Below are positions 1 to 10,940 of a stretch of DNA of 64,000 nt, one piece after another (position 1 is the stretch's first letter; each line of letters opens with the position of its first letter). A program made the translations under genes and the position numbers. The notes under the pieces are model-generated. The model saw only the letters and a program-made list of their open reading frames with translations, was not told the DNA's origin and ran no database searches. The DNA comes from Pseudovirgaria hyperparasitica (lineage: Eukaryota), in the NCBI GenBank assembly GCA_010093815.1, contig ML996565.1. One strand, 5' to 3'.

Positions 1-2540
1 GAGCGCCCCTCGGTGCATCTGTAGATTGCCTGCCGGCTGGTGCTTGCTGTGGAGGCAGCGGAGGGATAGCTCGAGCAGCAGAAGGGACCGGAGGAGGGGC
101 CGCAGGGGGTAGAATAGGTGACCTGATCGGTCCTTCATCTGCGGTAGTGCTATCATCTATACTCGACTCTCTAACATGGGATCCAAGAGCTTCTTTGTGC
201 GTCGCACCAGAAGCTATGTCTGTGTCGTAGTCTCCTTCATACTCGGTTTCTTCTTCTAACTCATCGTCTATCGACACTCGTTGCGAAATACTGTCTATAG
301 TTGGCTGCCGGCTTGGTGGTGCTGCAGTAGGCGGAGGAGGTGGTGGAGGCCTGGCTTGAGCTGGGGGAGACATTGGGGGGCTCATCACTGGAACAGGAGG
401 AGGAATACGGCTTGATCTCTTCTCAGCAGGTGACGATGTTCCACCGGTGGTAACATAGTCGGATCCCATAGTCGAGGTTCGCCGTGGTACGGACGGGCTT
501 CTGGGACCTGAGTGGTCGGAGGCAGGAACTGGAGGAGGAGGCCCGCGAGCTGAAAGCTCGATTGACCTTCGTGGCATCTCATCGTCCGACTCTGAACCGG
601 ACGTCGGCGATCTAAACGGCACCGGTGCTGGTGGCACGGGTCTTTCGGTAGGCACTGGGGGTGCAACTCTCTCTGACATAGACACCGGCCGTTCTATACG
701 AGTCAGCAAACGATACTTGTATCCTGATGCAATGGAAGATGTCGAGTTCTCTTGTGAACCTACTGCGGAACCTAATGAACAAGAATGTCTCTCCTGGTCT
801 GCCCAGTTCGAGGCTGGTTTTTGAGCAGGGAGGACGACAAAATCTCGCCGAACAGGTGTCCACAGGGGTCCGTCTGACAGCCAAACTACGAGATGTGGGC
901 GACTTACGGCTTGGTATCGGCGGTGGGGCACCTCGTTGGGCTGATGGAGATGCTGGCTCGACATCTTCGATGTCGGGCACATCCTCTGGTTCTCGATTGC
1001 TGACGGCAGATTTTCTGCTTTGGTCTTCCTTTACAACATTAAGTTGTGTATCTTCGGACTCGGGGCTCCGGACAGTCGACATCCCTGGGATGGGTATCAT
1101 TGGTAAACGCGGAGCCCTCTCGTAGTCATCTGGAGCAGATTGCTCTGGTACTGGCGCTGTCTTCTTCTTCTTTGGTGGAATGCCCCCTGACGGAAGGCCG
1201 CCACCGAACATTCCTGCCATACCCATTCCTCCACTCATCTTTGCCATACGTTCGCGGAGTTCTAGCTTACGTCGTGTTTCTGCATCAATCTCGTCGTCTT
1301 CTTCTTCGCTAGCACCCTCATCCTCTTCTTCGATGTCCTTGTGGGTGTGGACCGTTGAAAGGGGGGTTTGGGGTATACGCCGTGAAGTATCTTCATTGTC
1401 ATCGACACTGGTGGATTCACCTTCGGCCTCTTCAGTCGTTTCTCCGGCAGCGGACTGATCAGCGTCATTTGTATCGCTAAGAAGCTCCCTTGCCGGCTGG
1501 GGTATTTCTGATACATTAAGTCCATGTGATATTTTACGTGGGGGAGCAGTCCTAGGAACATCTATAGATCCTCTATTGGATCCATCAGGGCTAGCTACTT
1601 TATCTAGCTCGTTGTTCTCATCAGCAGCTGCATCCTGAATCTCCGATTCGGTTCGTTTCTTGCTCGGTCGCTTCGGTTTGTCTTTCTGTGTCGCTTCGGC
1701 TCGTTTTGCCTGTTCGGCCTGCTGTTTTTGAAGGAGAGCGATCCTTTCTTTTAGACTTGTAGGTTTAGGTGCGTCATCTCCCTGAGCTTCTTCTGTAGTT
1801 GCAGCTAGACCAGCTTTTTCGGCGGCCTCAAGGTCCTGAGCTTGACGTTCAGCTATCTCCGGGTCTTCTTCTCGGCGATAGACCTTCTGAGGTGGGGGCT
1901 CGCGTGGTGCAGTCGGAACATAAGCATTCCTGCTGGGAGGGGGCGCGACGAATGGCTTTTTGACGAAGCCCGCACCTGCTTTGCTCCCGCTGGGTTTGAA
2001 AGGTGCGACAGGTGCCGCAGCCGGCTTATTGAATGCTGCGATCCGATCTTTGAAAGAACTGGATTTCTCAGCCACTGGCGGAGGGGCTTTCGATATCGAG
2101 GTATTTGGTACAGGCTTGGGCGCAGGACTTGGTTCTGGAGCTGGTTTCGGCGGGGGGTTTGTCTTTGCCGGCTCCTCTGGCGCAGCCTTGGAGATTTCAG
2201 CCTGACGAACAGTCGCTGGCTCGACACGTCTCTCCTGAATAGGCTCCTCTGCCTCTGACAATGGAGCGGACACGGGAGGTAGCGCCTGTGTCGCAACTGC
2301 ATCTAAGGGTTTATGACGCGAGGCTCTGTTGGGTCTTGGTGGAGGTTCAGGTTCGTACTTCTCTACAAAATTCTTTGGGAAAAGACCTTCCTTCTTAGCC
2401 CCCGTAGAATCTTCTTTGTATTCGCCAATGTACCAATCATCGTCCTCTTCCTCTGTCACCGTTATGATCTGGCCGGCCGGGAAACTCAGGTCATCGTCGT
2501 GAGGGGACGCATAATCATAGAGAGCCTTGACTCGAAACAT
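1..2540 (-). CDS. BBC1: SH3-domain, proline-rich actin-patch protein (Bbc1/Mti1 myosin-tail-interacting family); 3' end runs off the left edge of the window
   Basis: N-terminal SH3 domain (FRVKALYDY..DDLSF..DWYIGE..EGLFPKNFV) followed by SFKDRIAAFN, SLKERIALLQ and LRERMAKMSGGMGM segments. Intron 694-907 (GTAAGT...GCTGAC...TAG) rejoins a Pro-rich frame (QRPVSMSERVAPPVP...). ATG at 2540. Confidence 0.8.
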
Positions 2541-2989
2541 AGTGCTCAGTAGAACAGGCGTTAGTCGGGATGGCTGGCTGTTGTAGAAGGCTGACAGTTG
2601 CGGCGAAGTGCGGAGGTGCAATTAGTACTCGCGGGGCAAGCAATGGTGTATCGCCCATTCAGCAGACGCACGACAGCCTGAGGCAGCGAGCAGGCGATTG
2701 ACGGGCAGGAATGCAGAGAAAACAATCGCTTGATACAGCGGCCATACACGTTCGGAGGAAACGGAATGAGTAAGGTTCGGCCTGGAGGGGGGAGGGTGGT
2801 AGTTGATGTTTGGCATAGTCTTCGTGAGTCGTCACCTTTCCAACTCCCGTTACGGACTAGCGTCATTAGCCCCAACCCACTACATCCCCGATGATCAGCC
2901 ATAAGATGATGATATCCATGGATCTTTTCAATTGCTCCGGCTAAGGTATTGTTCGATTCTTCCGCTACAGTTCTGCCGCCGCGCTCGAT

Positions 2990-3871
2990 ATGCTACCAAA
3001 GACTGTCCCAAAGTCGATTTTGAAGAAAACCAAGAGCAAACCACCGGCAACACCCAGTGAACATGTCCCACCAGAGAAAGCTACCTCCTCTGATCCAGTA
3101 AAGGATCGCCATCTAGCAACCGCATTGCACCATGCTAAGCTGATACAGCAGCAAAAAGATACAGAGAAACTAATCCTAGATGCATCACTTGCCCTCCTCG
3201 AGCTACCCAGCTCACCGAATGCTGATGCCGCCATGCCCGCCGCACATGATGTGCGCGCCTTCAAGGAGCATGTTGCACTGCTGAGGCCACAAGACTATAG
3301 TGACCTGATCGAAGAGCGCAACGCGTCACGACTTTGCGGTTATGCTCTATGTCCCCGACCCAACAAGGAGCTGAAAGGCGATGCCAAATTCAAGCTCGTG
3401 GTTTCGAAAGAGGCGGGATTGAAATCAATTCCAAAAAAGGAACTCGAGCGGTGGTGCTCTACAGACTGTGCCCGTAGAGCTCTCTATGTCAAAGTTCAAC
3501 TTCTTGAGGAACCAGGCGGGATTTTGTTATCTGGCCGGAGTGCGGACATTGACTTACTGGCAGAAGACATACCATCCACCCTCATAACTTTGCCATTGCG
3601 GCCCAAAGTGATGGATAGCTGCACTCACTCACATAAAAATGACACAGAGGCAGCATCGACTCGACATGATATCCATAAGGATGTGGATAACGCATCAAGC
3701 GAACTACTCACCTCTCGCGTTGTCGAAAAGCGTGTCATCAAGGCTGTGTCCGCACCGTCACTCGAACATGATGGCCAGAACCACTCAGTCATTGAAGGCT
3801 ATACCCCCGCAGATCGTTTTTTAGACAAGCAAGAACAAGGAACTGAGGAAGACCATGATTGGGACGATTGA
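2990..3871 (+). CDS. RTR1: RNA polymerase II CTD phosphatase, Rtr1/RPAP2 family
   Basis: Intronless 293-aa ORF with DYSDLIEERN..LCGYALC...WCSTDC zinc-finger signature. Confidence 0.85.
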   Translation: MLPKTVPKSILKKTKSKPPATPSEHVPPEKATSSDPVKDRHLATALHHAKLIQQQKDTEKLILDASLALLELPSSPNADAAMPAAHDVRAFKEHVALLRPQDYSDLIEERNASRLCGYALCPRPNKELKGDAKFKLVVSKEAGLKSIPKKELERWCSTDCARRALYVKVQLLEEPGGILLSGRSADIDLLAEDIPSTLITLPLRPKVMDSCTHSHKNDTEAASTRHDIHKDVDNASSELLTSRVVEKRVIKAVSAPSLEHDGQNHSVIEGYTPADRFLDKQEQGTEEDHDWDD

Positions 3872-4450
3872 ACATGAATTCTGGGTTCGAGGAGGAATCT
3901 ATACAGATCTTGGTGAGGGCGAACGCTACATCATTCTCCACTGAATGTAGAATGCCTGAACGCAAGTTTCTGATCGACTTGTGAGAGCTTCATACTATGC
4001 TCCCTCGGGACCATGACTTCTATCGTGGACGATAAGGATATATCAACGGAGGGATGTGTACGACCAGGATCGGTCATGCGCACCTTCACAAACCAAGATG
4101 AAACCTTTGATCTTGGCAACTTGGAGTGTCGTGTGTACCCCTATGTTGGTCTGTACGCCAGTCATTGCGACACACGCAGACATGCAACAGTGCGTGATAC
4201 ACAGACGTCCTGTATTCAAGGAAGAATATGTAGTACCGTCCAAAAAATGATTGTCACCATTCGAACGCCTGTGCAAAGAATATTTTCCAGTGATCTGGTT
4301 GTGTTTTGTAATGCTACAGCTGGTACCGATCACGTGATGACGCTTAACTGCAGATGTTTGCCCTTCGAACAGCTTGGGCCAGCCCAACTTCATTCCCTTT
4401 TGTTCTTCATGTCGCTACTTCAACCCAGCTCAAGCGCAACCCTCTGCGCG

Positions 4451-5743
4451 ATGCAGAGGGTACAGCAGCACAGCAGTCGCAAAGCTTCCTCACCCACTGC
4501 ACAACTGCTTCGCTCCTCGCGCCTCTTCTCGATACCAGAGCCACTCCCGAAACCTTCAACGTTCAAGGCCAATGGAAGAGGATCTCCAAATGCTACGCTG
4601 CCGTATCCGGTATATCAAGCCATTGAGGCACCTCTTTCCTCCGCCTCCCGGGGTGATTATGGACTGAAGCGACCCCTACCTCTACGCAAACTTCGTCGGA
4701 CCAGCTCTCCTGTCGTTCGACTCGTTGAATTGGATGCAATTGAAGATGTAACTGATTATGAGCTCGCCTCAGATCACGTTCAGACCCTACATAAGTTGCA
4801 AGAGTTAGGATTGTCAATTTCCAATGGCCAGCGATCTGGGACTTTCCACAGCTACAGCTCAAGCAAAAGAGCGACGGATTTGAATGCATTTGACGACCTT
4901 GTGGATGCATCGCACACTCCAATTCTCAAGGAGGAAGACTTCAGGAAATATCTACACAAAATCTTTGCGGCGAGACATCTAGTCATGCGACAGAAACGCG
5001 CCTTGGAAGGCGACGCTCAAGAGGTAGAATTCACCGAGAAAGATTTCCAAGCTGGCCTTAAGAAACTGTGCGAGGAATTCCAAAAACAGGGTAAAAAGTC
5101 TCGGTTAGCAAGATACGTGAAAGAGTTCTTGTCAACACAAGTCCCAGAATTGCTTGGCGATGAAATGCGCGCCGAACGCACCACGCATGCATCCGCAGGT
5201 ATTTCATATCTTCGAACCCACAAGTACCTCGAAAATCACCCCACTCTGGGGCCTCTCGAGCATCGAACTCCTGTAGAGGCTAGAATTCTTCGAAATGCTA
5301 ATATGCCGGGATGGGCTACATCATCTAGGGCGGCAACTCTTGGTATCGCCGGTGTAGCAATTCCTCGAGCTTCGGGCGAGAGCCAATTCAGGGGCCCGAA
5401 CAGCAATACCTTCGATCCTACTGTTCAAGGCGGTCAGAAAGTTCTTGTGCATCCCACTCGTATGGGCATTAGGCCGGATGGAAAGATAACGATGAACTGC
5501 GACCAGGCAGATCCTGCTGCAGAAATCATAAGAGAGGGTAGACTACCGCCACCAAAGAAAGCGGCCTCAAACACGCATCGAGACAGTGGAGCGAGAATGC
5601 CAAACCTGGATATGCTATCGACACCACGACCCCCGACACGACAGGAGCCATCGGGACAACAGGTTGGGTTGGATTATGGGCTGGGAGCTACAAGCAGCCG
5701 CCCCCCGACTTCGAAATCTGATCCGTTTCCCGATGTGGATTGA
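4451..5743 (+). CDS. MRP51: Mitochondrial small-subunit ribosomal protein bS1m (Mrp51)
   Basis: LLRSSRLFS..P..YP.YQAI..P.SS.SRGDYGLKRPLP motif and H.SAGISYLRT. Basic, Ser-rich presequence from ATG 4451; the ORF part 4013-4450 is probably not translated. Confidence 0.8.
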   Translation: MQRVQQHSSRKASSPTAQLLRSSRLFSIPEPLPKPSTFKANGRGSPNATLPYPVYQAIEAPLSSASRGDYGLKRPLPLRKLRRTSSPVVRLVELDAIEDVTDYELASDHVQTLHKLQELGLSISNGQRSGTFHSYSSSKRATDLNAFDDLVDASHTPILKEEDFRKYLHKIFAARHLVMRQKRALEGDAQEVEFTEKDFQAGLKKLCEEFQKQGKKSRLARYVKEFLSTQVPELLGDEMRAERTTHASAGISYLRTHKYLENHPTLGPLEHRTPVEARILRNANMPGWATSSRAATLGIAGVAIPRASGESQFRGPNSNTFDPTVQGGQKVLVHPTRMGIRPDGKITMNCDQADPAAEIIREGRLPPPKKAASNTHRDSGARMPNLDMLSTPRPPTRQEPSGQQVGLDYGLGATSSRPPTSKSDPFPDVD

Positions 5744-8241
5744 TCATTGATCTCAGGGGAGCATGCATCCAGAGCGGAGAAGGTAGCATAAAACGATGCT
5801 TCCGTCACGTTTGTATATTATCTATAGAGCGGGGAACACGCTGAATTGTCAATAATAAATTCATGTCTAGGGCCCACGAATGCCCAAAGTCGAAGATAGC
5901 ATCCGCTTTACATGGTGAAGAAACAAGAATGTTATGTATATTGATGATGGCCAACGACAGCAGACAGCCGTATGCCAGTGCCTTCTGCTGTTCCCCAAGT
6001 CCCTGTGAGTAGAACTTGAAGTTTAAAGGTCCCTAAAGGATATGAAGTGGCTGAGGCATTTTCTAACTCGTACAACAAATGCGGGACAGCTTCTCTTTCG
6101 CCCTGAGATCGAGACATCCAGCAGTATGAGGTAGGCAGAAGCAGGCAGGTTTGCATAGAGAAGTCGCGGACAGTATAATTCTTAGCCAGCCTCCTCGATG
6201 TACCGTCTTTCTCCTTACCTGTACGACTCTTCATTCAGCTAATGCCACTCTCAGGTCTTGCTCTCTTAATGTATCCTTGTCATTCCTCGCAGACGAATGG
6301 TGTTGATGGAAACGTGCAATGTGTCATTCGATTGTAGGTATGAAGGCTGGGCTCGTGGATATGCTGGACGGAGCTATGTGAGCAACATCTGCAGTGGCTA
6401 GGTCAAATCCAAACAGAAAGGGAGAAAAAATGCTGCGTGCCACTCGTCTTGAGACACACTATCTATCAGTCTTGACTGATAGATCAGCTCGTGATCATAA
6501 AAGCGAGTCCAACAACGCTCGTGCTCTTCACGGCTCGGTTGTTCTGAGAATGTCTGCTGTCAGCATCGAACAAAAGGTGAGTCTTCAAGGCAAAAGCGTT
6601 CATACCATGGCCAATTGGCCAAGTAAGTAGCTTAGCTTCCCTCAAATGTTGAATCCTGATCAGCGACACCATTATCACCGGGTTGGAGCCAACAATATAG
6701 TGAAATGCTGGTGCTGTCTTCAGTCAATACCATACATGTGATGGCAATCAGTTAGCAAGTAGGTTTGAAATGATCAACTGATAAAGTTATGGAGCTTGTG
6801 AGCCTGTGACACATATACTATTCTATGCAAGAAGCTAATGGTGGAAGTCAGCTCATAGTACCACTGTAGCTGTTCAGATTGATCTGAGATGTACCGCTCA
6901 TCAGGCAAGGCTGGGTCTAGTCATGGAGCGGGGCCTTCATCTTGATTCACTGTCGCCAAGGAGCACGATGACTTTCGACTTTGTTTTAACTGGTTCACGA
7001 AAGTTCCAACTGATTAGCATCACAAGCAGCCAGGCCAGTCCAGTTCAGTCCCAGTAGTCAACAAGAAAGTGGGAGGTTTTAAAATTTGCCCTCTTGGCAA
7101 TGAGATACTAGACCCACGAACTCGCAACCCCTAGGTCGCTCTCGGCTTCTATCTTCTATTAGTAGTTTGACTGGTACGAAAGACCGTCACTGCCGTGACA
7201 AAGTCTTTGGACTGCTCCGGTGTTTTGCTGACCGATTTTATGATCTTCAAAGGTATGTCTTTTGCAGGATCTGACAGTGCAACAAGGGCTGCTGTGTTCT
7301 CCGTGCAGATTACGAGGGCAACACACACTGACCGTGCCGTCGCCCGCTGTGGAGTCCAGCACCTGGGGCTTTGGGTATCCACGATCGGAAGATCCTGAAG
7401 CCGTAACAACACGGCGTCCATCACTGGAAATCTACCATCAGCAGTTATTTTCAGGAGGTCTTGTCCAATGACAGCCAGTCTAATTACCCCAGCTGTCTAG
7501 CTCTCTCTAGCTCTCAGTTTGCGAGCCGTGTGAAATGACCAATGATAATAGCTCCAATTACTCCTGGAGCTAGGATGAACGCGGGAAGGCAAAGGATCAT
7601 CCATCCGCAAAAGGAAAAGTATAACATCTCGCGCCCAACTGTCCAACTTGAACTGCGGGGCGGTAGGGAAGGTCACCGAGCGCTTTGGGCGTACCTCGAT
7701 CCTGGTGGAGCAGCCGATTTAGACCGGAACGCTGGTCTCCCGAACATTTGAAGGTATATCATGGGGAAAAATGGTGGTGGTGCCAACGGTCCTTGACAAA
7801 TTGCTGTACTGTGATTGGCCATACGCACACGGAAGCTTGGCTCCCGACCCTCTAGAATGCACTTGAGGTCATCTTAGTTCTATAATCAACCACGCGAGGA
7901 ACGGGGAAACCTTGGTCTAACCGCTTTCGGCTCACGATGTCGACGTCGGCCTACCACAGCTTCGTCCTGCTGCTTAGCTGCTTGTTAATCCTCCCTGCGT
8001 CGGAGATCCAAACATACACTTAGCTCGATGCGGCAGCGATACTTTTGAACGGATGTAGTGTTTACCATTCGATGGAGCGCGAGCTTGCTGCTCATACCAG
8101 GCTACCAAGGGGCGTTTCACTCAAGTTGCTGTTATAAGATCCAGAGCCGTGCCGCCCATCTGATCGTAAGCTCTATCAACGCATTCTTCTCCAGACACAC
8201 TCGTATCCACGATCTATATTCCTTTAATCCATTTCATCATC

Positions 8242-9198
8242 ATGCGTTTCTCTACTCTCGCTATGGCCGCGGCCGCTGCCAGTGGTGTCGTCGCCCAGGA
8301 GGACACCTCCCTCTGCGGCAAGTACACCACCGCGCTCTTGATGAACAACACTGCCGAGAACCAATACATGCTTCTCCAATTGCTCGTCAACCGTGTCGTC
8401 ACTGGTGCCACCCAGGAGCAGGTCAGCAATGGATCTGCTGTCCCCGGTATCCTCGCCCCTGGCAACGTCAACGGCACCGACGTGAACCTCCTACCTTACT
8501 TCGATGGTTCTCTCGCCTCGACCAACCGCAATGGCGAAGCAGTCTCCGTCAACTTCCTTGCTGACGGTGGTGCTACACCATTGACGGCTTCTCCTCCCAA
8601 GCCTGCCAACAGCACCGACTCTCCCCAATAGTAAGTCTTGATCGAACAGAAATGAATTCCAAGGATCTCTGCTTATCATCCGACCAGCTACCTCCTTACC
8701 CACCTCTACTCCTTCTTCGGTGCCCTCCTTCAATGCCAGGTCGGCTCCGACGGCTTCCCAGCCTACGAGGGCAACCCGTCCATGGCCAAGGTGCACATGT
8801 TTATGGCCCTGACCAACGCCGAGAACACCTACTTCATCCAACAGGTGGGCGCTGCAGCCGTCTCCTTTGGCGTGACAATGGACGATGTCAGCACCGTCGC
8901 TGAGGCTCTCGTCTCCACCTTCAACTATCGCTGCTCCCCGGCTGCCAAGATCGTCGGTGATATGGAGGAGCTCCAGTCCATCTGCCAGGCTGAGGACTGC
9001 CCTCTCTCGCCCAACGCCAACTGCGACGCCTACCCCAACAGCGGTGCCGTCTCCTCGCCCACTCCTACTCCTTCCGGCTCCGCTGCTATGACCCCGACTG
9101 GCGGCAGCTCGCCTACCAACACCGGCGCTGCCAGCACTCTTACCTACTCCGCTGGTGCCGGTGTTGCCGGTCTCATCGCTGCCATCTTCGCCTTGTAA
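8242..9198 (+). CDS. Secreted, probably GPI-anchored protein with a truncated-haemoglobin-like domain (exons 8242-8630, 8688-9198)
   Basis: Signal peptide MRFSTLAMAAAAASGVVA; intron 8631-8687 (GTAAGT...CAG) joins the two ORFs in frame; 6 Cys; Ser/Thr/Pro stalk; hydrophobic C-terminus (AGAGVAGLIAAIFAL); strong C-ending codon bias. Confidence 0.85.
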
Positions 9199-10940
9199 GC
9201 ATGGAATTGAGATGAAATCGGACTGGAGTTGTGTGAGTGTTGTTGTCGTGTTGAGTGGAGAATAAAATTTTGTAATTAATACCCCCCCTTTTGCACCGAG
9301 CAACAGGCTCGTGAGCATAGAGATAGTATAGTCAATTGACGATGCGTCTCAATTACGATGTTCCACTGCGCAGTGATATCTTATGTCCTTGTTCGCATGC
9401 CATGCTCTTTCGTGCGACCATCCTACTACACTTGCAAACTTACTACTAATATGCCTAAATGCACATACTAACACCTCTAATATCTCCAGCCTGTATCATC
9501 CCATATCCACAAAAACACCCCGCAAACCATCTCATTCAATCCTACCTCGCGCACGCATGCACGCACGCGACGCCACAGCACAACGTAGAACAACATCTCG
9601 GCACAGTCTCGCAATCTCCTCTCTCACACTCTCTATGACGCTCACATCCCGTCCCATTGCGGCACAGCCATCGTCCCGCGACTCAAGGTGCAGCCAGCCT
9701 GGCCCGCGGAGGCCCAAAGGCGCATTTTGTAGTTTGTACCTAGCTAAGGACGGACCGCTCTGGACTGTACCCGGCCTGGACTATACATACTGGGCTGTAC
9801 CGGACTGCGGTCTGGGCACGGTGTGATGTATACATGGCGAAAGAAAGGGGTCGTCGAGGGGGCAGAGTAGAGGCGTGAGTGACGTTATGGTGAGCAGTAG
9901 ACGGAGATGAATGAGGAGGTTATTCGGGGGTCTGGAGCTGCAGAAGGACGGCATGTGGAGAAATGTGGAGCTTGGAGGGCATGGAAGGGCTAGTGTGAAA
10001 TGGGTTAGGCTAAGTGCGTGTTTGAGACTTTCAGGTCCACGACGAAGGAGAGCACGACAAAGCAAGCTGACCTCAGCACATCAATCACTCACTCCATCAA
10101 GAAAAAAAAAAACTGAAACCCCCCCAGAAAACAAATATCGCACCTCACACACCTCGCTAAGAACGAAAAGAAAGATAGTAACCCCTCCCCTTGCATTCCC
10201 TCATCCGCTCGCTTGTCTGACGATGTCGCGAAACACGGACAGTTCAGCTATCGATATGTCACCGCCGCAGACGTGCTGGTTAGAAACCCCCCCCTCTGCG
10301 CCAAGATAGCCGATTGCATGCGCTATGGTAGTTATTATGGCACGCTGCGATCTTGCTTGGATCCTGGCGCGTGGTGTGATTTGACTTGGTACTGGCTTGC
10401 TACTGATTAGGTGAGTGACTAAGTGGAATGCATGAATGACGCAAAGCCGTGCGTGCGTGCTCTGGTGATGTTTGTGGTTGAGTGATGATAGTGGTAATTA
10501 GTGGTGGTGGTGTTGACACGCACTGATTGCCCGAGGCCCCCATTCACACTCGAACGGGGCGGGACGAAACGAAACGATGCCAGGACCCGAACCCCTGAAA
10601 GTAAACACGCATACATCAGCCGATATCCGTTGGCGAAAAGGACGATTTGCCGGGGTGAGTGAGTTGTGTTTGTCTTTTCTGTCTATAACAGATATAGATA
10701 TATGTTTTGCCTATGGCGGTGTAGTATATGCAAAGGAGTAAAAAAGGGGTTTATAAGTGATTGGAGTGGCATATATGTAGTAAGCTGTTCTTCATTACGC
10801 GTGTCATACGGAGTATATCATCGAGCCGCGTTCTTTGCATCCCGTCATTACATCCTCTCCATGGCTATCCGTCAATCCATCTATCACCACCCCCTATACT
10901 CTACCCCTTATTCCACCCCCCTATATTCCATCCCCTCCTT

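Follow-up and report, generated by a model that had tools for sequence, protein, structure and literature searches.

The window analysed here, a stretch of 64,000 nucleotides from the fungus Pseudovirgaria hyperparasitica (contig ML996565.1 of assembly GCA_010093815.1), carries on its plus strand a two-exon gene at positions 8242-9198, whose spliced product of 299 amino acids comprises a signal-peptide-like N-terminus, a folded domain with six cysteines, a stalk rich in Ser and Thr and a C-terminal signal of the type used for attachment to glycosylphosphatidylinositol (GPI). An earlier, sequence-only reading of this DNA had proposed that the product is a secreted, GPI-anchored relative of the group I truncated haemoglobins with a possible bis-His haem site. 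The present analysis makes it very probable that the domain is homologous to the 2/2 globins and that it is tethered at the cell surface. Truncated haemoglobins are normally intracellular and had been considered absent from the higher fungi; the family to which this protein belongs puts a relative of them in most Pezizomycotina and, as predicted, outside the cell.

The coding region consists of 299 codons and a stop. Its product is 100% identical over the full length to the database entry 'hypothetical protein EJ05DRAFT_534560 [Pseudovirgaria hyperparasitica]' (P0003), of dothideomycete source, and this identity also supports the exon junction 8630/8688. In a public run (X1), one contig joins 8630 to 8688 and drops exactly 57 nt with GT..AG ends, and a second contig is unspliced over 8601-8717; the joined contig, from a run whose library kind is not on record, fits a spliced transcript and is no proof of an RNA library. 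All five peptide strings quoted in the sequence-only reading are found in the spliced product, and the codons of Phe87, His135 and His166 start where it had placed them, at 8500, 8701 and 8794. A tblastn search with P0003 over the window gave no second copy of the gene, the best other match (E 0.019) being the antisense of the gene itself. A Gly/Arg/Ala-rich open frame of 285 codons runs antisense to the gene (8491-9348, minus strand); it mirrors the codon bias of the sense strand and is therefore most likely not a gene. On the plus strand, TATAAG at 8133-8138, 104 nt 5' of the ATG, is a possible promoter signal, and AATAAA at 9261-9266, about 65 nt 3' of the stop, is a possible polyadenylation signal.

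The proposal that the protein is secreted and GPI-anchored can be regarded as well founded, as the predicted signal-like N-terminus is combined with four N-x-S/T sequons, a Ser/Thr stalk and a GPI-type tail, the signal peptide and the GPI signal being judged by hydropathy heuristics only. Ala18-Gln19 is conserved in at least 90% of the relatives, which suggests cleavage at this point and a mature N-terminal Gln. Ser, Thr, Pro, Ala and Gly account for 85% of residues 247-285, and along the stalk the predicted local distance difference test (pLDDT) score of an AlphaFold2 (AF2) model drops from the 70s to below 50 from residue 263 on. The G-A-A at 276-278 is a candidate omega site, and the hydrophobic tail VAGLIAAIFAL closes the protein with nothing after it. 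Such a tail is present in 59 of the 60 aligned relatives (the exception, P0019, has a different C-terminus), 54 of the 60 pass a crude test of N-terminal hydrophobicity, and some other relatives have a transmembrane (TM) segment in place of the GPI-type tail.

The whole protein contains six Cys (25, 146, 212, 229, 234 and 242) and only two His (135 and 166). Conservation counts are drawn from 299 domain matches among 270 fetched family proteins; because these proteins were the best-scoring ones, the counts favour closer relatives. The number of Cys agrees with the sequence-only reading, and each is kept in at least 97% (97.7-99.6%) of the family domains. The invariance of all six in a secreted protein fits disulfides, of which the ectodomain probably contains three.

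Fold, homology and spread of the family

The AF2 model, built on an alignment of 60 family sequences, has a mean pLDDT of 78.3 and a predicted template modelling score of 0.76; the core reaches 83-95, and confidence is low only at the signal peptide and at residues 263-299. Helices are predicted at residues 24-33, 38-54, 84-87, 128-143, 162-166, 173-189 and 194-208, with beta hairpins between residues 74 and 104, and the 2-on-2 sandwich (helices B and E over G and H), the pre-F loop and a one-turn F helix are all present in the predicted model. Ten of the 11 best Foldseek rows are group I truncated haemoglobins, at E 0.13-0.8 over about 80 columns, with none at E <=0.001. Alignment of Foldseek's 131 candidates with VIA-align gave Z 12.5 for 1s56_A over 125 residues (root-mean-square deviation (rmsd) 3.7 Å), Z 11.8 for 3aq8_A over 117 of 117 residues (1.8 Å) and Z 11.3 for 1dlw over 116 of 116 residues (2.0 Å); group II chains reached about 10.2 and group III chains 8.8, against 11-12.5 for group I. 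A search independent of Foldseek, over 48,161 representative chains, returned 12 with Z >=8, all of them globins and with group I first; at least nine of the 12 are titled truncated haemoglobin, and 3/3 globins come next at Z <=7. With VIA-align, a helical model may score up to Z 13 through its arrangement only, but against this caveat stand the coverage of whole target chains at low rmsd and the presence of one family at the top of the list. The 2/2 globin fold that had been proposed from the letters is thus borne out by a model that matches whole group I chains at Z 11-12.5.

The match spans model residues 14-231 (the alignments start at 14-23), and the targets have 116-128 residues. The surplus of about 65-100 residues corresponds to two insertions, at 55-80 and 90-127, and a Cys-rich region at 209-245 extends the domain further. 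Because the insertions are as conserved as the core, with V-x-G-I-L in the one and N-F-L-D-G-G-x-A in the other, they appear to be functional parts and not loops.

At the level of sequence, the match to PF01152 that the sequence-only reading had looked to was obtained in part: the whole protein has none, but three multi-domain relatives pass the cut-off of 21 bits (P0124 with 35.7, P0125 with 33.3 and P0126 with 24.4 bits). As these three match the query at E 5.9e-132 to 1.6e-93, homology to the truncated globins follows transitively. Profile comparison by hhalign points the same way. The family alignment of 60 sequences including the query (A1), or a larger version of 223 rows, was set against 12 cyanobacterial group I globins (A2) and eight group II globins (A3), both taken from PF01152 genes of bacterial genomes. 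Against group I, A1 gave a probability of 84.7% (E 6.7e-6), its residues 120-215 gave 93.5% (E 2.3e-7) and the 223-row version 94.2% (E 1.2e-7, score 50.2); against group II, the family gave 0.3-0.4% (E 0.14-0.18). Group I against group II, the positive control, gave 98.8% (E 8.2e-17), and scrambled versions of A2, one reversed and 20 column-shuffled, yielded scores of at most 17.0 and probabilities of at most 0.9%. The signal comes only from the E-to-H half. That group I is the nearest group, as had been proposed, is upheld both by these probabilities (84.7-94.2% versus 0.3-0.4%) and by the structural search, in which the highest Z belongs to group I. Because the sequence distance between the family and group I greatly exceeds that between groups I and II, we file the family as what would be a clade of its own, diverged within the 2/2 globin superfamily and nearest group I, and not as a member of group I.

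A word-indexed search found 235 relatives; exhaustive searching yielded 698 clusters (50% identity) at E <=0.001, and 383 of these reached E <=1e-10. Among the members with names are Dothideomycetes, Sordariomycetes and Leotiomycetes as well as several lineages of lichen formers; across Pezizomycotina the family is widespread and extends to major plant pathogens and the biocontrol fungus Trichoderma, and outside the ascomycetes it also occurs in the basidiomycete Tilletiaria and the diatom Nitzschia inconspicua. Within A1, the query shares 49-61% identity with the 59 other sequences, a high value for secreted fungal proteins of different classes. Tandem arrays of 2-4 domains, 43-48% identical to the query, occur in P0124, P0125, P0126 and P0127, the latter three being metagenomic or unnamed; P0124 is the Nitzschia inconspicua protein, with 937 aa and four domains, encoded on a contig of 3.1 Mb and deposited under the name 'bacterial-like globin'. 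The diatom array raises the question of gene transfer between fungus and diatom or of an older origin. In a metagenomic protein of 1221 aa (P0163), five repeats match only the E-to-H half and the Cys-rich extension, and in each of them Lys takes the place of the E10 His and Val that of Tyr156. Pfam scans of 28 longer relatives revealed no informative fused domain, the one match being to a TM-juxtamembrane model.

In the databases, family members are annotated as hypothetical or as haloperoxidase. The literature searches yielded no paper about a fungal truncated globin that is secreted or GPI-anchored, about a globin-like extracellular haem protein or about this family, and none that names any of five orthologue locus tags in its main text (supplementary tables were not searched). 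In passages of a 2012 census of 165 fungal genomes, truncated (T) globins are confined to a single chytrid and a single blastocladiomycete, with Ascomycota and Basidiomycota having none (PMC3287990). Given the name already attached to the diatom relative by its annotator, assigning the fold is not an entirely new step; what appears undescribed in the literature searched is the form, which is secreted, anchored, rich in Cys and enlarged by insertions, and how widely it occurs in fungi.

The haem site and the roles it may serve

The motif Y156-x-G-x-x-S-M-x-x-V-H ends in His166 (8794-8796), which the alignments place at the proximal position F8. Both hhalign and a hidden Markov model alignment to the Tetrahymena globin agree on this, in the shared context Y-x-G-x-x-M-x-x-x-H, and a non-significant hhalign alignment to group II likewise sets His166 on F8. 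His135 is set by hhalign on the His of the cyanobacterial motif Q-R-R-H-Q-x-A-F, which we take to be E10, the distal iron ligand of GlbN. The sequence-only reading had assigned both histidines in the same way, and their conservation across homologues bears it out: His166 is kept in 270 of 274 domains and His135 in 252 of 263. The few losses of His166 fall in fragments or in a degenerate second domain, and all four domains of the diatom P0124 keep both residues. His135 is replaced by Lys in six domains, Asn in three, Leu in one and Ser in one; five of the six Lys belong to the P0163 repeats and the other to P0268. As Lys E10 is an iron ligand in Chlamydomonas THB1, the change from His to Lys fits a ligand role.

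Other positions are also highly conserved, with Met169 kept in 270 of 273, Phe179 in 265 of 269 and Phe140 in 260 of 267 family domains, and Phe87, within L-x-P-Y-F-x-G, in 245 of 247. By helical register, Leu132 falls at E7, Leu136 at E11, Phe/Tyr139 at E14, Phe140 at E15 and Phe179 at G8 (F8 + 13), so that E7 and E11 are invariant Leu, not Gln, and G8 is Phe. Phe87 is aligned with F36 of a cyanobacterial globin, in the CD1 register, only in a non-significant hhalign alignment. The earlier claim that all group I landmarks are present is overstated: the A/B half shows no detectable sequence similarity to truncated globins, and Phe CD1 is assigned by its motif and conservation only.

We lean, with somewhat more confidence than doubt, towards an explanation in which a tethered, diverged 2/2 globin holds a bis-His haem and serves in redox chemistry or scavenging. 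The protein would be a cell-surface glycoprotein in which a signal peptide is followed by an ectodomain of some 225 residues, a Ser/Thr stalk and, last, the signal for a GPI-type anchor. Its ectodomain would be a very diverged group I 2/2 homologue in which the four core helices (B, E, G and H) are kept together with the pre-F loop and a one-turn F helix, and to which two conserved insertions, a Cys-rich C-terminal extension and probably three disulfides have been added. One haem b would be bound via His166 at F8, which we consider probable. His135 at E10 may act as the sixth ligand, as in cyanobacterial GlbN; we put such bis-His ligation at a little under an even chance. The remainder of the distal side would be apolar: E7 and E11 are both Leu, G8 is Phe, and Tyr B10 is lacking. 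The outcome would be a low-spin hexacoordinate haem resistant to loss, and such a haem would suit electron transfer or the scavenging of NO (nitric oxide) or peroxide at the wall more than it would the storage of O2 or NO dioxygenation of the classical kind. We propose the redox or scavenging role only tentatively, with haem capture or relay nearly as likely.

Several results weigh against this explanation, with respect to homology as well as to the haem site. A Pfam scan of the whole protein gave no match, exon 2 alone reached 11.9 bits (E 0.27, cut-off 21), and among the 60 aligned relatives one match was obtained, below threshold. Searches of solved structures by phmmer with exon 2 and P0124 as queries returned nothing, and the family profile, run against PDB sequences, placed the Tetrahymena group 1 globin (E 0.1) under a phage tail protein (E 0.026). 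N-terminal slices of the family alignment (20-60, 20-95, 20-130 and 78-100) gave hhalign probabilities of at most 0.2% against group I, and the putative assignment of the N-terminal half, that is helices A and B and the CD region, rests on the predicted model. In helix B (38-54) neither Tyr nor Trp is conserved, the conserved positions being aliphatic apart from Asn50, and thus Tyr B10, a typical though not universal feature of truncated globins, is missing. Gly-Gly hinges at the AB and EF corners are likewise typical of these proteins; here the AB corner is N-N-T (35-37), with no such hinge, and the EF corner has only Gly141, plus a Gly at 145 in most relatives. In other group I globins the E10 residue touches a haem propionate, so His135 need not ligate the iron, and the pocket could be blocked by the 38-residue insertion that precedes the E helix. 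No functional link emerged from neighbouring genes or domain fusions, so that the roles are not discriminated, and the automatic names of relatives are haloperoxidase or chloroperoxidase.

The same fold and haem site might instead serve haem capture, with the protein acting as a wall-tethered haem receptor or relay for iron acquisition, analogous to the GPI-anchored CFEM proteins of yeasts and the tandem NEAT-domain receptors of Gram-positive bacteria. The stalk tethers the protein to the surface, relatives have 2-5 domains in tandem, an arrangement frequent among surface haem receptors, and the three probable disulfides and large insertions could stabilise an apo form; bis-His hemophores such as HmuY exist, and the family is present in a diatom, diatoms being organisms that live iron-limited. 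We give this role a low probability, not far below that of the redox role; against it, an identity of 49-61% across fungal classes of very different lifestyles, including lichens, does not point to host haem, and no iron-uptake gene lies among the neighbouring open reading frames (ORFs) of the window. A pentacoordinate, ligand-reactive globin that detoxifies NO by dioxygenation outside the cell, on the lines proposed for bacterial trHbN and with His135 on a propionate or gating a tunnel, seems still less probable. The best structural matches are trHbN chains, and several group I globins have at E10 a Lys or Arg that contacts the propionates. A passage of a review gives HbN an envelope location and an NO dioxygenase role (PMC5219038). 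In the fungal family, however, with its invariant Leu at E7 and E11 and no conserved Tyr in helix B, the polar distal network of Tyr B10 and Gln E7/E11 that serves O2 and NO chemistry has no counterpart, no reductase partner is evident outside the cell, and the position that ligates iron in GlbN and THB1 is occupied by His or, in one clade, by Lys.

Loss of haem binding with retention of the globin fold, which would leave a structural or adhesive wall glycoprotein or a protein that binds another ligand or a metal through its two His, would be in keeping with the very low sequence similarity to haem globins and with the existence of non-haem globin-fold domains, of which stressosome and phycobilisome chains appear among the distant structural matches. 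It is made improbable by the identity of the near-invariant positions, which are those of haem contacts (the F8 and E10 His and the Phe at candidate CD1, E14/E15 and G8) in the context Y-x-G-x-x-M-x-x-x-H, and by the fact that the only His of the protein are those two. An enzyme of the haloperoxidase or chloroperoxidase type, in which a Cys such as Cys234 of the E-D-C-P motif would be the haem ligand, is what the names of several UniRef relatives and an ESM Atlas cluster auto-named 'putative Cloroperoxidase' imply, and the conserved Cys234-Pro235 does resemble the P-C-P motif of those enzymes. Yet PF01328 (Peroxidase_2) is not among the matches of the 60 relatives at E <=10 or of P0003-P0005, and globins fill the best 50 of the 48,161 chains, with no chloroperoxidase or peroxygenase among them, an absence that is in itself no exclusion; moreover, six invariant Cys in a secreted protein fit disulfides. 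We regard a haem-thiolate enzyme as highly improbable and the labels 'haloperoxidase' and 'chloroperoxidase' as not supported; the former label is probably the product of a weak match to a profile, for which the conserved E-D-C-P stretch may be responsible.

To return to the tethered bis-His globin, its binding of haem would mean that fungi display a globin on the cell exterior, which would bear on the handling of NO, peroxide, oxygen or haem iron at walls and host interfaces and would add to the known range of the globin fold a form that is secreted, bonded by disulfides and enlarged by insertions. A broader proposal, which we offer as speculation and hold with low confidence, is that the family constitutes an ancient, unrecognised clade of extracellular eukaryotic 2/2 globins, spanning Ascomycota, Basidiomycota and diatoms, that works as a bis-His outward electron relay or as a sink for NO or peroxide. 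The disulfide-locked, glycosylated module would be displayed by a GPI or TM anchor, sometimes in arrays of four to five domains, and its haem would be re-reduced by plasma-membrane reductases. If this were true, the globin fold would gain a new job and a new cellular location, and the fungal wall a redox component missing until now.

Feature coordinates and neighbouring genes

The features of the gene are collected in Table 1 together with three housekeeping genes upstream of it. The remaining neighbouring ORFs were assigned to no family in the Pfam scan. One of them, of 390 aa (18251-19423, minus strand), has a Gly/Ser/Thr-rich stretch, one TM segment and a short cytoplasmic tail and is unrelated to the globin gene. 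Its weak match to the ErbB1 TM-juxtamembrane model (E 7e-4) lies below cut-off; a match to this model, also seen in TM-anchored members of the globin family, is probably a generic TM match.

Table 1. Coordinates of the globin-family gene, its parts and its upstream neighbours, as positions of the window
Feature	Position	Strand	Basis or remark
Exon 1	8242-8630	+	Codons 1-129 and first two bases of codon 130; ATG at 8242
Intron	8631-8687	+	57 nt, GTAAGT...CAG; stops in frame
Exon 2	8688-9198	+	Last base of codon 130 onward; stop at 9196-9198
Signal-peptide-like N-terminus, residues 1-18	8242-8295	+	Hydropathy (residues 3-18 hydrophobic) and conservation
Helices A (24-33; invariant Cys25, Tyr28) and B (38-54)	8311-8403	+	AF2, pLDDT 86-92
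Insertion 1, residues 55-80; invariant V-x-G-I-L, beta hairpin	8404-8481	+	AF2, conservation; no group I counterpart
C/CD motif VNLLPYFDG, residues 81-89	8482-8508	+	Phe87 (8500-8502) is candidate Phe CD1
Insertion 2, residues 90-127; two beta strands, N-F-L-D-G-G-x-A	8509-8622	+	AF2, conservation
E helix, residues 128-143, split by the intron	8623-8727	+	AF2; His135 (8701-8703) at E10 by hhalign
Pre-F loop and short F helix, residues 144-166	8728-8796	+	Cys146; AF2 helix 162-166
G helix (173-189) and H helix (194-208)	8815-8922	+	F-G-V at 190-192; AF2, alignments
Cys-rich C-terminal extension, residues 209-245 (Cys212, 229, 234, 242)	8923-9033	+	pLDDT 88-93
Ser/Thr/Pro-rich stalk, residues 246-275	9034-9123	+	Composition; length variable across family
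GPI-attachment-type signal, residues 276-299	9124-9195	+	Small residues, short spacer, terminal hydrophobic tail
SH3-domain protein	612-2621	-	Upstream housekeeping neighbour
Rtr1/RPAP2 family protein	2945-3871	+	Upstream housekeeping neighbour
Mitochondrial ribosomal protein Mrp51	3974-5743	+	Upstream housekeeping neighbour

Comparison with known systems

The group I truncated haemoglobins (trHbN type, PF01152), represented by PDB chains from Tetrahymena, Paramecium, Shewanella and mycobacteria, resemble the fungal protein in that whole chains superpose on its predicted fold, the E-to-H halves align as profiles, and Y-x-G-x-x-M-x-x-x-H with its F8 His, the aromatic residues at E14/E15 and a candidate Phe CD1 are shared. 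In contrast, the fungal domain is about twice as long, with two conserved insertions, a Cys-rich extension and six invariant Cys; it lacks Tyr B10 and the Gly-Gly of the AB corner, has Leu at E7/E11 and Phe at G8, and lies below the Pfam threshold, and the protein is predicted to be secreted, glycosylated and tethered by a GPI or TM anchor. The cyanobacterial GlbN type, for which ten ORFs were available, comes closest in its ligands: hhalign sets His135 on the E10 His and His166 on the F8 His, and the spacing H-x3-F...L-G...Y-x-G-x-x-M-x-x-x-H is common to both. GlbN is hexacoordinate (His E10-Fe-His F8) and carries a covalent haem-His link. Unlike proteins of the GlbN type, the fungal protein has no Gln at E7/E11 and is predicted to be extracellular and rich in disulfides.

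Chlamydomonas THB1 is a structural match at Z 10.4 (PDB 6cii and 4xdi being among the matches), and its Lys E10 recurs in one clade of the family, namely in all five P0163 repeats and in P0268. THB1 is intracellular and, in a passage of one paper, is linked to nitrate reductase (PMC6779911), whereas the fungal protein is predicted at the cell surface. The CFEM haem proteins of fungi, which are GPI-anchored, share with it the order of signal peptide, Cys-rich domain, Ser/Thr stalk and GPI anchor, and a possible haem-handling role may be common to both; the fold, however, is unrelated, six Cys stand against the eight of a CFEM domain, and Pfam scans of the protein, of P0003-P0005 and of 60 relatives gave no CFEM match. 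With the haem haloperoxidases and chloroperoxidases, only the automatic name and a C-P dipeptide are held in common.

Bacterial HbN, itself of group I, has a polar distal site and no signal peptide, stalk or GPI architecture. In a review passage, however, it is described as glycosylated and located at the cell membrane or wall (PMC5219038), and on that description a surface location for a truncated globin is not without precedent. Two cyanobacterial group I globins of 149 aa (L144:1492-1938 and L145:1492-1938, both on the minus strand) have a signal-like start and a lipobox-like L-L-x-G-C, and in the alignment neither the E7 Gln nor the E10 His of their cytoplasmic neighbours is present in them. 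Possibly these are bacterial truncated globins that are exported and anchored by a lipid, and, as such, a possible parallel to the surface form of fungi.

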